Below are positions 2,459 through 9,319 of a DNA stretch of 18,360 nt, piece after piece (positions within the stretch are counted from its first letter, which is position 1; each line of letters starts with the position of its first letter). The DNA lies in UHGV virus genome UHGV-0159119; one strand, written 5' to 3'. Under the pieces are notes generated by a model, which did not search any database, was not told the origin of the DNA, and saw nothing but the letters and a program-made list of their open reading frames with translations. The stretch comes from a virus. Both the position numbers and the translations under genes were made by a program.

Positions 2459-3166
2459 CTATGCCGCCTGTTTTAGTTCGTTAACTCTGATGTTCATTAC
2501 CTGAACGCATTTAGCCTGCGCCTCCTCGTTGCCAGCCATTAATTGCCAGTCACGCTGATAACGCTCGATGAGTTTTTTCTTGTCAGTTTCTGTTGACGCA
2601 TAATCGCTGAAGTCTTTCAGGATTTGTTCGCAGTCAACCGATGGAGATTTCTGGTTGGTATTTTCTGGTGATGGTTTGTTATCTGATGCTGGGATTGCCC
2701 ATCCCGGCAGCGATGGAGGGGACCAGTAAAATCCTGTTCCATCCTTCAGTTTTGCCCTGTGCCACCCCTGCTTTTTATCGAGAGATGTTTGTGCGAAACC
2801 TTCCTCAAGGTTATACAGATACCGACCGATTCCCCACTGAACGGCAGCACGCTTCATTGCACCGGAACGACCACCTTTGACGGCTTCTACCTGCGTGTTT
2901 TCAGCAGCATCCCATTTGGTTACCCATTCGGAATCAATCTTGATTGATATGCCGCATTCAACTCCGCCGTTGTTGGGAATATCGCGGTATTCATTGCGCC
3001 ATCCTGCTTTGCCGCAAACATCGTCCAGGCGTTTCATGATTGCCCGGTTCGTGACATAAGCCAGCACCATAGCCCACACCTTGCCATCGCGTGTTTTACC
3101 GCTTTGCTGTATTCGCCATTCGATATCTTCAGGGCTGAATGGCTCATCGAATTTGTTCAAATCCAT
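2459..3166 (-). CDS. Phage single-strand annealing recombinase (Rad52/Sak-type core; C-terminal tail resembles P22 Erf)
   Basis: 235 aa with GISIKIDSEW..KGGRSGAMKRAAVQWGIGRYLYN core. C-terminal TETDKKKLIERYQRDWQ..KCVQVMNIRVNELKQ matches my recollection of the Erf tail. GAGGTG RBS. Confidence 0.8.
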   Translation of the reverse strand: MDLNKFDEPFSPEDIEWRIQQSGKTRDGKVWAMVLAYVTNRAIMKRLDDVCGKAGWRNEYRDIPNNGGVECGISIKIDSEWVTKWDAAENTQVEAVKGGRSGAMKRAAVQWGIGRYLYNLEEGFAQTSLDKKQGWHRAKLKDGTGFYWSPPSLPGWAIPASDNKPSPENTNQKSPSVDCEQILKDFSDYASTETDKKKLIERYQRDWQLMAGNEEAQAKCVQVMNIRVNELKQAA

Positions 3167-3174
3167 AATTCACC

Positions 3175-3345
3175 TCAGAATGGACACGGCCCAAGGAAAT
3201 AACGCTGATTTAATACTTCGACTCGGGACAAATTAAGGCATACCCGCATTCCTTCGCGGTCACCATTATGGCGATACCAGAGAGCTTTCTGCGTGTACAT
3301 GCGTCTCTGTAACTTGCTCTCCTTCACTGTGGTTGCAAGTGACAT
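3175..3345 (-). CDS. Small hypothetical protein (56 aa) in the gam/abc slot
   Basis: Below the track threshold. ATG at 3345 with AAGGAG 7 nt upstream. Overlaps the next ORF by 80 nt in another frame. Confidence 0.3.
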   Translation of the reverse strand: MSLATTVKESKLQRRMYTQKALWYRHNGDREGMRVCLNLSRVEVLNQRYFLGPCPF

Positions 3346-3424
3346 GAATATCTCCTTCGTTACCGATTAATTCTTTCATCTGACGAATGAATTCTTCGTC
3401 TGACCAGTTATCTGTAAAACTCAT
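3266..3424 (-). CDS. Small hypothetical protein (52 aa) in the gam/abc slot
   Basis: ATG at 3424 overlaps the kil stop as ATGA (translational coupling). Translation MSFTDNWSDEEFIRQMKELIG... Confidence 0.3.
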   Translation of the reverse strand: MSFTDNWSDEEFIRQMKELIGNEGDIHVTCNHSEGEQVTETHVHAESSLVSP

Positions 3425-3573
3425 TTCCTGCGATACCACGGAAGGTTGATAGCTGATTTCATCGCTTTATTTGCTTCAAGCCACATTTTTGAATCACCAA
3501 TAAATCTGGCTATTACTGCTTTGTTCTGTGCAGCACGAAGCATCTGGTGATTGATGGCTATTTCATTGCGCAT
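3421..3573 (-). CDS. kil: Kil-like host cell-division inhibitor
   Basis: 50 aa, MRNEIAINHQMLRAAQNKAVIARFIGDSKMW..., resembling lambda Kil (IATFIGDEKMF) as I recall it. Lies directly downstream of cIII as in lambda. GAGG RBS. Confidence 0.55.
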   Translation of the reverse strand: MRNEIAINHQMLRAAQNKAVIARFIGDSKMWLEANKAMKSAINLPWYRRK

Positions 3574-3689
3574 AATAAGACCTCAACTCTTTTCCATCCG
3601 TCACGTAATTTACGGGTGATTCGTTCAAGTAAAGATTCATTTAGTTGGAAGGCACCCATGCGAGCGCCTCCCGCGATTGCGTAAATCAT
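3558..3689 (-). CDS. cIII: CIII (FtsH inhibitor that stabilises CII)
   Basis: 43 aa, MIYAIAGGARMGAFQLNESLLERITRKLRDGWKR..., containing the conserved lambda CIII core ESLLERITRKLRDGWKR. AAGGAA RBS. Confidence 0.75.
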   Translation of the reverse strand: MIYAIAGGARMGAFQLNESLLERITRKLRDGWKRVEVLLCAMK

Positions 3690-3713
3690 GGGTGGTTCCT
3701 TATGTTGGTTTTA

Positions 3714-4682
3714 TTAGTAGGTTATTTTTGTTGCGAATACTTCGCCTTTTACGATGGCTGTTATGATATTTTTAGCAACATCTTCTGATGCGCCAACCTT
3801 GATAAGGTCAGCAAGTATTTTGTTATTTACTTCTTTCCGGTGATCTTTATCCTTTGCTCTACGCTCTTCTTCGTCCTTGATTCTTTTTTCTTCTGCTATT
3901 CTGGCTTGCTCTTTTGCTTCAGCATCGCGACGGATTTGTTCAGCCTCCTCCTGTGCTTTTCTGCGTTCTGCTTCAATTGCTGCCTGCTTTTCTCTTTCAG
4001 CTCGTTCTGCTGCCTCTTTTGCTTCGCGCTGTGCTCGTTGCTCGGCTTCAATGCGTTCACGCTCTGCACGTTCTGCTGCGGCCTTAGCTTCTGCTTCTCG
4101 CCTTGCTGCTGCTTCAATTTCGGCTTTTGCCTTTGCTTCGGCTTCTGCTCTGGCTTTCTCTTCAGCTTCTCTTTTTAATCGTTCTTCATGCTCTCGCTTT
4201 TCCTGCTCCGCTTTGAGTCTTGCCTCTTCTCTTTGGCGGTCAAATTCGCGATCCATCAAAATCGCTATTTCATGGTCAGACTCAATTTGCTTTGCGAGAG
4301 CTTCAGCTGCTGCCTTAGCTTCTTCTTCGGCTTTAATCCGCGCCTGTTCTTCCTCATAATCAGTAAGAGGCTGGCGTGCCTTGGCTTTCAGCTCATCAAG
4401 GCGATCACGCACTGTCTTGCGGTTGGCATCAATTAGCTTTGGAATTTCCTTCAGTTCAGCAACAAGGTCTTTGCCAAGACCATCGAGATATGTTTTCGTC
4501 TGCGCAACTTTATACGCCAGAGAAGCGATCTCCTTTCTGCCCTTTGCCGTTGTGATATCAGGCACAAAGGACATAACTTCACGTTCAACCTTTTGAAGGA
4601 TTTCTTCAATCTGGTCGGAAGACTGAAATACAGTCATTGCATTTGCTTTTTCAATAACAACTAAATCTGTTACTTCACTCAT
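3714..4682 (-). CDS. Highly charged coiled-coil protein, function unknown
   Basis: 322 aa. The central ~200 residues are E/A/K/R repeats (EAKAKAEIEAAARREAEAKAAAERAERER...). AGGAGG RBS. Confidence 0.7.
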   Translation of the reverse strand: MSEVTDLVVIEKANAMTVFQSSDQIEEILQKVEREVMSFVPDITTAKGRKEIASLAYKVAQTKTYLDGLGKDLVAELKEIPKLIDANRKTVRDRLDELKAKARQPLTDYEEEQARIKAEEEAKAAAEALAKQIESDHEIAILMDREFDRQREEARLKAEQEKREHEERLKREAEEKARAEAEAKAKAEIEAAARREAEAKAAAERAERERIEAEQRAQREAKEAAERAEREKQAAIEAERRKAQEEAEQIRRDAEAKEQARIAEEKRIKDEEERRAKDKDHRKEVNNKILADLIKVGASEDVAKNIITAIVKGEVFATKITY

Positions 4683-4716
4683 ATATCCTCCTTCGTTGTA
4701 TTCTTTAAAAACGCTC

Positions 4717-5085
4717 TCAGGCGGCTTTGATAGTCATATCATCTGAATCAAATATTCCTGATGTGTCGATATCGGTAATTCTTATTCCTTCGCTACCATC
4801 CATTGGAGGCCATCCTTCCTGACCATTTCCATCATCCCAGTCGAACTCACACACAACACCATATGCATTTAAGTCTTTCGAAATTGCTATAAGCAGAGCA
4901 TGTTGCGCCAGCATGATTAATACAGCATTTAATACAGCGCCGTGTTTATTGAGTCGGTATTCAGAGTCTGACCAGAAATTATTAATCTGGTGAAGTTTTT
5001 CCTCTGTCATTACGTCATGGTCGATTTCAATTTCTATTGATGCTTTCCAGTCGTAATCAATGATGTATTTTTTGATGTTTGACAT
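4717..5085 (-). CDS. Hypothetical early protein (acidic C-terminus)
   Basis: 122 aa ORF with a GAGGA RBS; first gene downstream of the terminator at 5104..5131. Confidence 0.6.
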   Translation of the reverse strand: MSNIKKYIIDYDWKASIEIEIDHDVMTEEKLHQINNFWSDSEYRLNKHGAVLNAVLIMLAQHALLIAISKDLNAYGVVCEFDWDDGNGQEGWPPMDGSEGIRITDIDTSGIFDSDDMTIKAA

Positions 5086-5103
5086 CTGTTCATATCCTCA
5101 CAG

Positions 5104-5131
5104 ATAAAAAATCGCCCTCACATTGGAGGGC
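5104..5131 (-). terminator. Intrinsic terminator inside the pL operon (tL-like)
   Basis: Minus-strand RNA GCCCUC-CAAUGU-GAGGGC followed by GAUUUUUUAU. Confidence 0.55.
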
Positions 5132-5224
5132 AAAGAAGATTTCCAATAATCAGAACAAGTCGGCTCCTGTTTAGTTACGAGCGACATTGCTCACATAGCA
5201 GACTCGTAAATCTGCTATAGGCGC

Positions 5225-5386
5225 TTATTCGCATCGCATGACAACATCAAATTTTTCGAGATTACTTTGTCGCAACAATCCTTCTTCTACGCGGTCAGCT
5301 TTTCTATAATTATCAAATTCGAAATGTTTGATTACTTCTTTCGTTTCTCGCTCTATAACTTCAACAATGTATTTCTTATTCATCAT
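5225..5386 (-). CDS. Small hypothetical protein (53 aa)
   Basis: ATG overlaps the stop of the upstream gene (ATGA). Translation MMNKKYIVEVIERETKEVIKHFEF... Below the track threshold. Confidence 0.35.
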   Translation of the reverse strand: MMNKKYIVEVIERETKEVIKHFEFDNYRKADRVEEGLLRQSNLEKFDVVMRCE

Positions 5387-5679
5387 TCTTCCCCAAGAGC
5401 TTTTCTGATTGCTGCAAGACCTTTATTAACAGCTCCATACCATTCTGGATATGTTGTCGTTGTTCTATTTTTGGTTTGCTTAAGTAATAACTGAAGTGCT
5501 TCGAGAAGGTCAGGTGCTGCCGCTATTAGATTGGCATCTTCAATGCATTGAACTTCCTCACAGATTGCAATATACGAACGCCAGCCTGCGCCATTTTCAA
5601 GTGAGTCTGCCTGGATGATTTTAATCTCATCGCCATCCATCATTATTTCCCACTTACCTTCAGTACCTTTAAATTCCAT
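5383..5679 (-). CDS. Hypothetical early protein
   Basis: 98 aa ORF with a GAGG RBS. Confidence 0.6.
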   Translation of the reverse strand: MEFKGTEGKWEIMMDGDEIKIIQADSLENGAGWRSYIAICEEVQCIEDANLIAAAPDLLEALQLLLKQTKNRTTTTYPEWYGAVNKGLAAIRKALGEE

Positions 5680-5718
5680 GTTAGCCTCTGTTGTTTATGC
5701 CAAAAATAAAGGCCACCA

Positions 5719-5970
5719 TCAGGCAGCCTTGTTGTAAATGTTGCAGGTATCAAGTAAGTAATTAGATGGAGCGCCATAAATTATGAATTCATCGTTTGTC
5801 GGGTCCATCTCCATCTCTTGGCCTATTGCCATTCTTGCATCAGTGTCATCAGCGGCGAAGCATAAAACAGCCCACGCACCCATTGTTTTAAAAAGAACTG
5901 CAATTGGCTGTGGTTTTACTGAATTTGCGTTAGCGCGAAAATCATAAATCGCACTTTCATGAAATTCCAT
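5719..5970 (-). CDS. Hypothetical early protein
   Basis: 83 aa ORF with a GAGGTG RBS; first gene downstream of N. Confidence 0.6.
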   Translation of the reverse strand: MEFHESAIYDFRANANSVKPQPIAVLFKTMGAWAVLCFAADDTDARMAIGQEMEMDPTNDEFIIYGAPSNYLLDTCNIYNKAA

Positions 5971-6028
5971 ATATCACCTCAAATAAGTGGTTTGCTGCCT
6001 AATTTCATTTTCTGGCGACCAACACAAG

Positions 6029-6301
6029 TCATCTTGCTGTCAGTTGTTTGGATTTCCGGTAGCCTGCCGCGTAAAGAGCTACGTTTGGAAGACAAGTTGA
6101 ACCTTCATATTTTCTGGTCAACGTTGTCAGAGTTATCACTTCTGCTCTCATTGCTGGTTTGCGCTTGCATTGCAAGACCACTCGTGAAGGGGTTGGCCTG
6201 TGTAGCTTGTCGGAGCTGATCGCCTCCTGACTTTGCAGATTTGCACGACGAGCTCTACGGCGAGAAGCTGCGGTTCCTTTAAATTCTGTTTTTCTGGACA
6301 T
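6029..6301 (-). CDS. N: N-type transcription antiterminator (P22 gene 24-like)
   Basis: Start at ATG 6301 with GGAGG RBS. Arginine-rich motif GTAASRRRARRA near the N-terminus. C-terminus LPNVALYAAGYRKSKQLTAR matches my recollection of P22 N. The longer track ORF 6029..6373 is an upstream in-frame extension. Confidence 0.8.
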   Translation of the reverse strand: MSRKTEFKGTAASRRRARRANLQSQEAISSDKLHRPTPSRVVLQCKRKPAMRAEVITLTTLTRKYEGSTCLPNVALYAAGYRKSKQLTAR

Positions 6302-6399
6302 AGATTCCTCCCGAATAAACTTTGGCGATGCAATCTCGAAGCCCCTCCTGAGACGGTTGCTTCGGCATTGCATCCCACAGCTTATGTGGTTGGGTGATC

Positions 6400-6445
6400 T
6401 GGCTTTTCAGCCACGTAGTCGAGTGTTCGACGTTGTTTAAAGAGC
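6400..6445 (-). promoter_or_regulatory. nutL (boxA plus boxB)
   Basis: Minus-strand boxA GCTCTTTAAACAA, then a boxB hairpin UGGCU-GAAA-AGCCA (5-bp stem, GAAA loop), located between pL and N. Confidence 0.55.
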
Positions 6446-6491
6446 CTGCCAGTCTGTTCCGTTTGGCTTCCAGCTTCCTGCTGATGGCTAA

Positions 6492-6520
6492 ATAGTACGA
6501 TGTGTACTTTACTGAGTCAA
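6492..6520 (-). promoter_or_regulatory. pL promoter with operator OL1 in the spacer
   Basis: Minus strand TTGACT, 17 nt spacer, TACTAT. The 15-bp operator AGTACACATCGTACT (an AGTAC/GTACT dyad) covers the spacer and the start of the -10, in the same register as at pR. Confidence 0.6.
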
Positions 6521-6582
6521 TACAAAATGTTCTAAATATGGTTTAGTTTTTTATAACGCTTTGTATTTAATGGGTTTATATT

Positions 6583-6616
6583 TTGGAAAAAGAAAACCCG
6601 ACGCTAAGGTCGGGTT
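6583..6616 (-). terminator. Intrinsic terminator downstream of cI
   Basis: Minus-strand hairpin AACCCGAC-CUUAGC-GUCGGGUU followed by UUCUUUUUCC. Confidence 0.55.
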
Positions 6617-6646
6617 ATTGTTGTGTGTTTTAGAGTGGTGAGGCTG

Positions 6647-7306
6647 TTAACTAAATGTCTCTTCAGGCCACTGGCTAGCGATAACTTTCCCTACTACGGA
6701 ACAGCTATCATTGCATGGAATCATTGGATATTGCGGGTTTAGTGGTTGTAGGAACACCTGACCGCTATCCCTGATCAGTTTCTTGAAGGTAAACTCGTCA
6801 CCACCAAGTCTGGCTATGCAGAAATCACCTGGCTCAACAGCCTGCTCAGGGTCAACGAGAATTAACATCCCGTCAGGAAAGCTTGGCTTGGATCCTGTTG
6901 GCGCGGTCATGGAATTACCTTCAACTTCAAGCCAAAACGCACAATCACTGGCTTTTTTGGTTGTGCTGACCCATCTCTCCGCATCACCTTTGGTAAAGGT
7001 TCTAAGCTCAGGCGAGAACATCCCGGCCTGAACATGAGAAAAAACAGGGTACTCATATTGTTTTTTAACGGGGGCAGATGAGTATTCGCCAACAGGTGAA
7101 AATGTACCGTCGTGGTTGAATGAGACGTTATCAATACCAAGGTATTTAAACACCACACCAATCTCGTCAAGAGATGGATGACGAGATCCGCGCAACCAGT
7201 GACCAATTCCACCCTGCGTCATACCAAGCTCTTCGGCTAACTTCTCTTGAGTTATGCCGAGCTCTTTCATTCTGGATCTAGCCAGTTCATACCATTTCAT
7301 TTTCAT
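6647..7306 (-). CDS. cI: CI prophage repressor (HTH N-domain, LexA-like autocleaving C-domain)
   Basis: C-terminal domain is almost identical to lambda CI, including the AG cleavage site in HVQAGMF. The N-terminal HTH domain is not lambda's. Alternative starts at ATG 7300, 7342 and 7348. Confidence 0.9.
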
Positions 7307-7315
7307 ACCCTTATT

Positions 7316-7330
7316 ATTACGCTCTGTACT
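7316..7330. promoter_or_regulatory. Operator-like site (OR3-like) overlapping the presumed pRM
   Basis: ATTACGCTCTGTACT matches the operator consensus at 13 of 15 positions, just upstream of the cI start. Confidence 0.35.
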
Positions 7331-7362
7331 AAAATCATCCATGCACAAGATGTATTTTTTGT

Positions 7363-7391
7363 TTGCATTCTAAAAGTACATATCGTATTAT
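7363..7391 (+). promoter_or_regulatory. pR promoter with operator OR1 in the spacer
   Basis: TTGCAT, 17 nt spacer, TATTAT. Operator AGTACATATCGTATT at 7375..7389 differs from OL1 at two positions. Confidence 0.6.
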
Positions 7392-7417
7392 TGCGTTATG
7401 GTTACTATGGAGGGCAT

Positions 7418-7633
7418 ATGAGCAACCTACGAAAATATCGAGAGTCACTGAATATCTCTCAAACAACACTTGCTAAGGCAGTTGGATGCACACAGGGAGC
7501 TATCGGACATTGGGAATCTGGTCGTCGCTTCCCAGACCTTAAAACATGCCGTGCTCTTGTTGCGTGCCTAAACAAGTTAGGCGCAAAAGTCAGTCTTGAT
7601 GACGTGTTCCCGCCGGAACACAAAGCCGCTTAA
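7418..7633 (+). CDS. cro: Cro-like repressor (XRE-family HTH)
   Basis: 71 aa, MSNLRKYRESLNISQTTLAKAVGCTQGAIGHWESGRR... The HTH resembles the cI recognition helix (TQGGIGHW). GGAGGG RBS. Track ORF 7247..7633 is an in-frame upstream extension. Confidence 0.85.
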   Translation: MSNLRKYRESLNISQTTLAKAVGCTQGAIGHWESGRRFPDLKTCRALVACLNKLGAKVSLDDVFPPEHKAA

Positions 7634-7643
7634 TAAGCGGATC

Positions 7644-7689
7644 CGCTCTTTGTAACAACGGACATTCGTCCTACGTCGCTGAAAAGCGA
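7644..7689 (+). promoter_or_regulatory. nutR (boxA plus boxB)
   Basis: boxA CGCTCTTTGTAACAA, then a boxB hairpin UCGCU-GAAA-AGCGA of the same architecture as nutL. The GCGGATCCGC palindrome sits immediately upstream. Confidence 0.55.
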
Positions 7690-7774
7690 GTTCCAAGATA
7701 TCTGACCAACTAAGGCCATATGCGTTTCCACGCATACCTTTCAACTAACTATTCACTACTGGAAATCTTAAGAA

Positions 7775-8074
7775 ATGGAACAAACAAGTTACAGCAAACT
7801 ATCACAGCGCGACGTTGATCGCGCAGAAACAGATTTACTCATCAACCTGTCAACGCTTACCCAGCGCGGTCTGGCAAAGATGATTGGCTGTCATGAATCG
7901 AAGATAAGCAGAACGGACTGGAGATTTATTGCTTCGGTCTTGTGTGCTTTCGGAATGGCATCAGACATCAGTCCGATTAGCAGGGCTTTTAAGTATGCGC
8001 TTGATGAAATCACCAATAAAAAACGCCCGGTGTGCAAGACCGAGCGTTCTGAACAAATCCAGATGGATTTTTAA
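7775..8074 (+). CDS. cII: CII transcriptional activator
   Basis: 99 aa. C-terminus ITNKKRPVCKTERSEQIQMDF closely matches lambda CII (ILTNKKRPAATERSEQIQMEF). Confidence 0.85.
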   Translation: MEQTSYSKLSQRDVDRAETDLLINLSTLTQRGLAKMIGCHESKISRTDWRFIASVLCAFGMASDISPISRAFKYALDEITNKKRPVCKTERSEQIQMDF

Positions 8075-8092
8075 CAACATCCAACGAGGTAA
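8015..8092 (-). ncRNA. oop-like antisense RNA overlapping the 3' end of cII
   Basis: Minus strand ...CCAUCUGGAUUUGUUCAGAACGCUCGG-UCUUGCACA-CCGGGCG-UUUUUUAUU, strongly resembling the lambda oop 3' end and terminator. A TATAAT lies on the minus strand near 8093..8100. The 5' end is approximate. Confidence 0.45.
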
Positions 8093-8096
8093 TTAT

Positions 8097-8369
8097 ATGC
8101 GAAACAAAGGCTTTAATCCACCTGATACACACAAAGAAGCTAAGCGTTTGCGCTTCCTTCGTTCCATTGATGAAAGAACTCAAATCTCTTTTGTGAAAGT
8201 TGCCAGAACTGAGCTTCTGAAGGCTGAGGCGAGGGCGTTGCTCCAGTCTCTACCAAAAGAGGAGGGATATACGTTCATTCCAAACGCATTTCTGGAAAAG
8301 CTTCTCAAAGAAGACATATCCGTAAGTCAGTTTAACGATGTTCTTAAGGTCTTTCGTCAAGGCAGGTAG
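8097..8369 (+). CDS. Hypothetical protein between cII and the replication initiator
   Basis: 90 aa from ATG 8097 with GAGGT RBS. Track ORF 7929..8369 is an in-frame extension that overlaps cII. Confidence 0.55.
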   Translation: MRNKGFNPPDTHKEAKRLRFLRSIDERTQISFVKVARTELLKAEARALLQSLPKEEGYTFIPNAFLEKLLKEDISVSQFNDVLKVFRQGR

Positions 8370-8371
8370 TT

Positions 8372-9319
8372 ATGAGCAATACAGCAAAAATCTACGATTT
8401 CAGCGCCGCACACGAGCGCAGGAGCAACAGGATGGAGAACCAGAAAACTGGTTACATTCCGTTGTACCGGAGCATTCTGAAACAGTCATGGGCGAAAGAT
8501 GTTTATCTTCGCACCCTGTGGGAAAACCTTCTCCTGAATGCCGCCAGAAAGCCATACAAAGCGAATTTCAAAGGTAATGAATGGCATCTGCAACCCGGTC
8601 AACTGGTTGTGACAGCAGCTGATTTAGGTCTTCAGTTATGCGACAGACATGGCAAGCCAGCAAGCCGTGATCAGGTTGAGCGGATGCTTCAGGTTTTTGT
8701 GAAAGAGGGGATGATCTCCATTGATGGAGAGAAGCAAAAAGGTCGTGTGATAACCATCACAAATTACCATGAATATGCTCAAAAAATGGACGATTTACCC
8801 GCACATGAAGCCGCACAAACAACCGCACATGATTCCGCACATGATGAAGCCAGCAATGGCGCGGCTTTCAGCGTACATGCCGCACATGAAAGCGCACATG
8901 AAGCCGCACAAACAACCGCACATCATGAACAAGAAGGTATTAACAAGAATATAAATAATACCCCCCTCCCCCCCAATGGGGGAGGCGATGGGCAGGTTAA
9001 ACCTGAACGTCGCAAGGCAGAACGAATCGACTACGAATCCTTCCTGAACGCCTACAACACCGAAGTCGGTGACAGACTGCCACACGCTGTTGCGGTCAAC
9101 GAGAAACGCAAACGCCGCCTGAAGAAAATCATCCCGCAACTGAAAACGCCAAACGTGGACGGTTTCAGGGCGTATGTCAGGGCGTTTGTGCATCAGGCCA
9201 AGCCGTTTTACTTCGGAGACAACGACACGGGCTGGACGGCTGATTTTGATTACCTGCTGAGAGAAGACTCGTTAACGGGAGTTCGGGAAGGGAAGTTTGC
9301 AGACAGGGGGATTGCATGA
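8372..9319 (+). CDS. Replication initiator (lambda O / P22 gene 18 analogue) with origin iterons inside the gene
   Basis: N-terminus [10 protein letters not shown] resembles lambda O (MTNTAKILNF). Repetitive HEAAQTTAH linker is encoded by the iterons. Coupled to the downstream helicase. Confidence 0.7.
8799..8985. repeat. Origin-like iteron array, AT-rich stretch and G/C palindrome
   Basis: About eight CCGCACA(T/A) repeats, including the exact 24-bp duplicate GAAGCCGCACAAACAACCGCACAT at 8808 and 8901. Followed by AT-rich sequence and the hairpin CCTCCCCC-CCAAT-GGGGGAGG at 8965..8985. Confidence 0.6.

Follow-up and report, generated by a model that had tools for sequence, protein, structure and literature searches.

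Early-left operons of lambda and its relatives

In phage lambda the early-left operon runs from pL through nutL and N to cIII and kil, and N-modified RNA polymerase overrides its tL terminators, as established in the lambda literature. Within the ral–ea10 interval (lambda 33,536–34,287), ea10 and ral are dispensable, ral being conditionally needed on hosts with type I restriction–modification; Ea10 is an abundant, non-essential protein whose function is not known. Silverman et al. (preprint, bioRxiv 10.1101/2024.10.31.621285) found that an Hfq-bound small RNA of lambda, LPR1, renamed PreS, has its 3′ end at tL2a. This RNA is ~88 nt long (the northern-blot size), is processed to ~68 nt and appears in lytic growth only; it pairs with the leader of dnaN (the host sliding clamp) and activates its translation, represses alaS and promotes lambda DNA replication (bioRxiv 10.1101/2024.10.31.621285; later review). 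The PreS matches reported in that preprint were all of at least 92% identity.

We analysed the four-gene interval at 4,717–5,970 of an 18,360-nucleotide stretch of virus genome UHGV-0159119, the whole of which we call the window. With a probability of about 0.85, we read the interval as the ral-to-ea10 accessory segment of an N-antiterminated pL operon in a lambdoid E. coli prophage, assembled from interchangeable cassettes between RNA hairpins, with an internal terminator that is tL2a, the 3′ end of PreS. The elements follow the order pL, nutL, N, p83, hp1, p98, p53, hp2, PreS ending in tL2a, ea10, coiled-coil gene, cIII, kil:

6492–6520, minus strand: pL-like promoter, TTGACT and TACTAT with a 17 nt spacer, from a promoter scan
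6401–6445, minus strand: nutL, with boxA GCTCTTTAA (6437–6445), spacer hairpin (6418–6431) and boxB GGCTGAAAAGCC (6401–6412)
6029–6301, minus strand: N antiterminator, 90 aa from an ATG with a GGGAGGA ribosome-binding site (Pfam N_peptide, 2.4e-32)
5719–5970, minus strand: p83, acidic 83-aa protein of the VT2-Sakai H0090/phrog_2471 family (PHROG match 1.2e-60; Sakai annotation)
5699–5730, minus strand: hp1, terminator-like hairpin AAGGCUGCC-UGAU-GGUGGCCUU (5709–5730) followed by UAUUUUU, overlapping the p83 stop codon
5383–5679, minus strand: p98, 98-aa protein of phrog_1273, probable member of the XkdD/Y8K6 family (PF27050)
5225–5386, minus strand: p53, 53-aa protein of phrog_6949, coupled to p98 by an ATGA overlap
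5194–5219, minus strand: hp2 (type B), 11-bp hairpin with a UACG loop, directly 5′ of PreS
5104–5192, minus strand: predicted PreS (LPR1) small RNA gene, by near-identity to lambda; 5′ end placed from the published ~88-nt size in lambda
5131–5155, minus strand: single-stranded seed/linker of PreS, complementary to the E. coli dnaN leader (−47 to −17)
5104–5133, minus strand: tL2a intrinsic terminator, stem 5112–5133 and U-run (U6) 5106–5111
4717–5085, minus strand: ea10, 122 aa, orthologue of lambda Ea10 (DUF2528), 98% identical
3714–4682, minus strand: coiled-coil gene, 322 aa, Sf6 gp33-like, the next cassette after ea10
3558–3689: cIII, after the coiled-coil gene
3421–3573: kil, after the coiled-coil gene

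The initial annotation, made from the sequence alone, had placed four small genes with good ribosome-binding sites between N and the coiled-coil gene, in the slot where lambda carries ral, sieB and the ea genes. Its coordinates and sizes for the four minus-strand ORFs (83, 98, 53 and 122 aa) are correct, a plausible Shine–Dalgarno sequence stands in front of each, and the slot is borne out by the flanking machinery of an N-antiterminated pL operon. The pL-like promoter differs from the annotated pL of VT2-Sakai at four positions; nutL was identified in the sequence itself and set against the nutL annotated in Sakai, placing boxA GCUCUUUAA and boxB GGCUGAAAAGCC between pL and an N gene whose product matches the N peptide family (PF25694, 2.4e-32), as expected for lambda-type N/nut antitermination. 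The longest ORF for N extends to 6373. The promoter scan gave no support for an internal promoter in the interval, promoter-like matches there being no better than those in shuffled sequence. Plus-strand ORFs in the interval were dismissed, having no PHROG match, and the same arrangement is found in E. coli genomes at 99.6% identity.

Compared with lambda, the window shares ea10 (98% identical) and its ribosome-binding site, PreS/tL2a at 106 of 107 nt, an hp1 that ends the upstream gene, and the operon logic of pL, nutL and N leading to cIII and kil. It differs in having p83 where lambda has ral, orf28 and sieB, in an inserted 494-bp p98–p53 cassette, in a coiled-coil gene between ea10 and cIII, and in a hairpin 5′ of PreS unrelated to that of lambda. 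The Stx phages VT2-Sakai and 933W (N, H0090, ea10, cIII) match the window at ~98% DNA identity over N, p83 (H0090), hp1, PreS and ea10; Sakai lacks the p98–p53 cassette and the coiled-coil gene and retains the lambda-type hairpin before PreS, with 43 nt between hp1 and PreS where the window has the cassette (5193–5686). Phage mEp043 (Aguilavirus) carries a 99% identical p98 and a 98% identical PreS in the same order—p98, p53, type-B hairpin, PreS, coiled-coil gene, cIII, kil—but has a 51-aa gene after N in place of p83, and no ea10. The region is an ordinary, textbook mosaic segment; of its five elements, ea10 and tL2a/PreS are lambda's own. Ea10, tL2a/PreS and N/nut were already known, and phrog_2471, phrog_1273/PF27050 and phrog_6949 are catalogued families of unknown function.

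The 322-aa coiled-coil protein matches phrog_1376 and phrog_21365. Some records label it 'cell envelope biogenesis protein TolA' or 'Smchd1', apparently through low-complexity similarity.

PreS, its terminator and two hairpins

The intrinsic terminator that the initial annotation had marked at 5104–5131 is real: the hairpin and T-run fold at −12.9 kcal/mol (z = −3.85), with none of 200 shuffles folding as well, and it corresponds to lambda tL2a. That annotation missed two elements, hp1 (5709–5730) and the PreS within the stretch 5086–5224. Window positions 5086–5192 equal lambda 33905–34011 at 106 of 107 positions, the lone mismatch lying in the terminator loop, and the PreS part itself is identical at 88 of 89 nt (fold z = −2.8). 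Its linker (PreS nt 38–62, window 5131–5155) pairs with the dnaN leader at −23.7 kcal/mol in RNAduplex, a value reached by one of 500 shuffled linkers; we judged the pairing by this linker-only test in place of the uninformative whole-length RNAduplex, where PreS and dnaN did no better than shuffles. The PreS seed is intact in the window. Given the identity to the lambda PreS/tL2a segment and the complementarity of the seed, the 'internal terminator' would be part of an RNA gene, and the 'intergenic' stretch 5086–5224 is predicted to contain it.

This assignment rests on near-identity to lambda together with the preprint (bioRxiv 10.1101/2024.10.31.621285) and one review. An Rfam 15 scan of 3000–8500 gave no match at E ≤ 1; PreS is absent from that release and the family is apparently not curated, so the absence was not counted against membership. 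Hfq binding, lytic expression and an effect on dnaN and replication would apply to the PreS of this prophage by analogy with lambda.

We searched for exact matches to the PreS core, which gave 120 IMG/VR loci, or 127 once annotated records were added. All of these have the same PreS body, down to the last base of the terminator stem, and both flanks vary; the sequence right after the stem falls into several unrelated classes, each with a U-run. Where enough downstream flank was available (114 loci), the gene after PreS was ea10 in 45, the coiled-coil gene in ten, cIII in eight and another gene in 51. Since fewer than half of these loci (45 of 114) have ea10 after PreS, the 5104–5133 terminator is best assigned, by this comparison of sequences, to the RNA gene PreS and not to ea10. 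In this comparison of the slot, a check that the initial annotation had suggested, PreS is constant while its flanking protein cassettes vary, which indicates that the terminator travels with PreS and that the proteins are interchangeable. A 'terminator between genes' in a lambdoid pL operon can therefore be an sRNA gene, with PreS as the conserved anchor around which protein cassettes are swapped.

Between the first and second genes of the interval lies hp1, which folds at −13.9 kcal/mol and carries a T-run. The same element stands after ral in lambda and after H0090 in VT2-Sakai, and it is kept after 72%-identical p83 homologues in Citrobacter prophages, where one G·U pair has become G–C. 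The predictions place neither a hairpin nor an intrinsic terminator in the stretch from N to p83. Polymerase coming from pL therefore meets its first intrinsic stop signal after one gene, not three.

These observations bear on the expression scheme of the initial annotation, in which three N-proximal genes could be transcribed without antitermination and the 122-aa gene could not, the two groups being expressed at different times. To treat the terminator as an N-sensitive barrier is reasonable. For it to be mainly a timing device, with three immediate-early genes made without N and a delayed-early 122-aa gene, one can cite that tL2a is a real lambda terminator, that the N/nutL machinery is present and that nothing resembling an intrinsic terminator is predicted between N and p83. 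Against this stand hp1, a terminator-like hairpin of similar strength already after the first gene and conserved across genera, the co-variation of the terminator with PreS in preference to ea10, and the accumulation in lambda of an RNA ending at tL2a during lytic growth, when N is active (bioRxiv 10.1101/2024.10.31.621285). We consider such a timing role unlikely, and the 'three plus one' split is unsupported.

In the absence of N protein, most pL transcripts would stop at hp1, after the N and p83 genes. Once the protein is made, polymerase would continue past hp1 and tL2a into ea10, cIII, kil and the recombination genes, as inferred from lambda. The G+C stem and U-tail of tL2a would serve PreS, a trans-acting sRNA of ~88 nt, as its 3′ end and Hfq-binding module; this 3′ end may be released by partial termination or by 3′ trimming at tL2a, and the 5′ end may arise from a cut near 5192, just after hp2.

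Directly 5′ of PreS, loci carry one of two hairpins that are unrelated in sequence. The lambda counterpart of hp2 (lambda 34,013–34,045; about 1513–1545 in our lambda-type locus L004) is a 14-bp stem with a CAAC loop. The UACG-loop type was found in 12 loci, window included, and in all 12 the 3′ end of p53 lies directly upstream. That two different sequences fill one position suggests that a hairpin is needed there, and it may act as a signal in processing or stabilizing PreS or the mRNA upstream. As hp2 is unlike the lambda hairpin, PreS processing could differ from that in lambda.

Three further observations concern PreS. In a genome-wide pattern scan, prophages of nine other enterobacterial genera proved to carry a PreS-like class of divergent sequence, the genera including Enterobacter, Kosakonia, Atlantibacter, Citrobacter, Phytobacter, Pluralibacter, Leclercia and Cronobacter (loci L134, L136, L141, L143, L147, L148, L151, L165, L166 and L170). 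It keeps the A/U-rich linker (UUGGAAAAGUUCUCUUUGCCC), has changed 5′ hairpin and terminator stems, is followed by a different gene (MSANELALRFS...) and does not figure in the PreS preprint (bioRxiv 10.1101/2024.10.31.621285). We compared the two classes by per-sequence folds; the MAFFT/RNAalifold alignment mis-registered the 5′ hairpin, so that its covariation counts are not meaningful. Two IMG/VR loci, one of them L057, have another variant, which retains the 5′ half and the beginning of the seed and differs in its 3′ half and terminator (GCCGC...GCGGC). Lambda-identical ral–PreS–ea10 segments also occur in assemblies of unrelated taxa, namely Pseudoxanthomonas, Bradyrhizobium, Arthrobacter and Lacrimispora (L138, L140, L142, L153, L167 and similar), mostly on ~1-kb contigs, several of low coverage; these are probably lambda DNA contamination.

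Protein cassettes around PreS

The initial annotation recognized no family for the four proteins. This no longer holds: all four have PHROG family matches, and the 122-aa protein is lambda Ea10, with 98% identity over its full 122 aa and a DUF2528 match (PF10800) of 156.2 bits against a cutoff of 22 (4e-46, profile positions 1–104 of 104). Its gene keeps the lambda ribosome-binding site upstream and lies downstream of tL2a, as in lambda. Stx-phage records label the gene 'Ea10; Ssb'.

For p83 and p53, one might suppose chance ORFs in a non-coding spacer, both being short and without a Pfam or NCBIfam model; the initial annotation had itself named lack of conservation as a possible pointer to non-coding sequence. 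Both proteins have full-length homologues of equal length at 70–75% identity, and they match PHROG families at 1e-40 to 1e-60. Counted by codon position (1/2/3), p83 differs from a 72% identical Citrobacter homologue at 15/11/43 sites, and p53 from a 75% identical Cronobacter one at 10/7/35. This third-position bias refutes a chance origin, which we regard as exceedingly improbable, and a non-coding reading fares no better for p98, whose family has 7,596 representatives.

At E ≤ 1e-3 the p98 family counts at least 7,596 cluster representatives; in RefSeq, a protein near-identical to p98 bears the name 'XkdD/Y8K6 family phage-associated protein'. PF27050 is a precomputed match on p98 homologues of 90–98% identity; p98 itself has no match in the Pfam and NCBIfam scans. 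The family alignment shows invariant KGTxGxW, (E/N)DAxLIAAAPDLLEAL (LIAAAPDLLEAL) and AIxKALG motifs, present in distant representatives too, and a hypervariable, length-variable segment (alignment columns 64–105) between two highly conserved helices. AlphaFold2 predicts a confident helical hairpin over residues 45–95 with the variable segment at its tip (mean pLDDT 73), the N-terminal β region being poorly predicted. XkdD/Y8K6 is thus a large uncharacterized phage family with a hypervariable segment and more than 7,000 cluster representatives. A relationship of p98 to an Ead/Ea22-like protein was considered and rejected, hhalign finding none.

This gene has been shuffled among temperate and lytic phages, its N-terminal half alone occurring in ~145-kb lytic phages of Klebsiella, Cronobacter and Salmonella. 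It is found with or without p53, and placed after p83, after ral or after other genes; the p98–p53 cassette follows ral in one locus (L006) and in phage mEp043 stands without ea10.

A 44-aa ORF (5643–5777, minus strand) spans hp1 and the start of p98 and matches phrog_31828 at 1e-22. It most likely belongs to a family of over-annotated ORFs that overlie the conserved hairpin region.

The ral slot and a possible role in counter-defence

Homologues of p83 fall into 19 clusters, confined to Enterobacteriaceae, and in Sakai, Citrobacter and E. coli prophages N is followed directly by p83. Upstream of PreS in the 127-locus set, ral occurs in 48 loci, p83 in ten and both together in none. The two genes share their position, their last codons (..NKAA*) and the 3′ hairpin hp1, but no protein similarity between them is detectable (hhalign probability 0.2%). 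On this evidence p83 is an alternative occupant of the ral slot, and a candidate substitute for Ral. SieB was found by tblastn at lambda-like loci only and is absent from the window.

Of the HMM and structure-prediction searches proposed in the initial annotation, the HMM searches identified Ea10 as PF10800 and placed all four proteins in PHROG families. A Pfam scan returned nothing for p83, p98 or p53, and NCBIfam and PADLOC scans, sequence and profile searches of the PDB and fold comparisons gave no match for p83, p98, p53 or Ea10; the AlphaFold2 model of p83 is unusable (pLDDT 56). A literature search on DUF2528, XkdD and Ea10 in connection with defence found no functional data.

The four are probably non-essential accessory proteins. 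Taking together the ral slot, acidity, dispensability and hypervariability, their likeliest role would be in host takeover or counter-defence by protein binding. A narrower proposal is compatible with this explanation: that the segment is an anti-defence islet whose products, p83 in place of Ral together with p98, p53 and Ea10, inhibit host restriction or abortive-infection systems or serve them as decoys, the target of p98 being set by its hypervariable tip. It would account for the occupation of the same slot as ral, the mutual exclusion of p83 and ral (10 against 48 loci) with a 3′ hairpin common to both, the small size and acidity of p83, p98 and Ea10 (pI 4.2–4.6; net charge −14 for Ea10), the dispensability of ea10 and ral in lambda with the conditional need for ral on type I R-M hosts, and the conserved helices around a hypervariable segment in a p98 that has moved among temperate and lytic phages. 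Weighing against it, the proteins resemble neither Ral nor any solved or annotated anti-defence protein in sequence or fold, the p83 model offers no structure to compare, and position alone is weak evidence. We hold it to be possible, at somewhat worse than even odds.

More tentative again, and on balance doubtful, is a two-part conjecture. In its first part, at least one of p83, p98 (with p53) and Ea10 would be an unrecognized counter-defence protein, with p83 as a non-homologous replacement for Ral and the helical tip of XkdD/Y8K6 setting specificity. Separately, PreS would be the founder of a broader, structurally covarying sRNA family in many enterobacterial prophages, with exchangeable flanking processing hairpins.

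Endings in ..KAA* recur in several unrelated early genes: Ea10 (TIKAA), p83 (YNKAA), Ral (NNKAA) and a cro-side ORF at 7247–7633 (EHKAA), located at 4717–4730, 5719–5733 and 7619–7633 in the window and at the ral 3′ end in lambda. For p83 and ral the shared ending arises because the shared DNA continues into hp1. The 3′ end of ea10 (AAAGCCGCCUGAGAGCGUUUUU) looks like a degenerate copy of this p83/ral boundary element.
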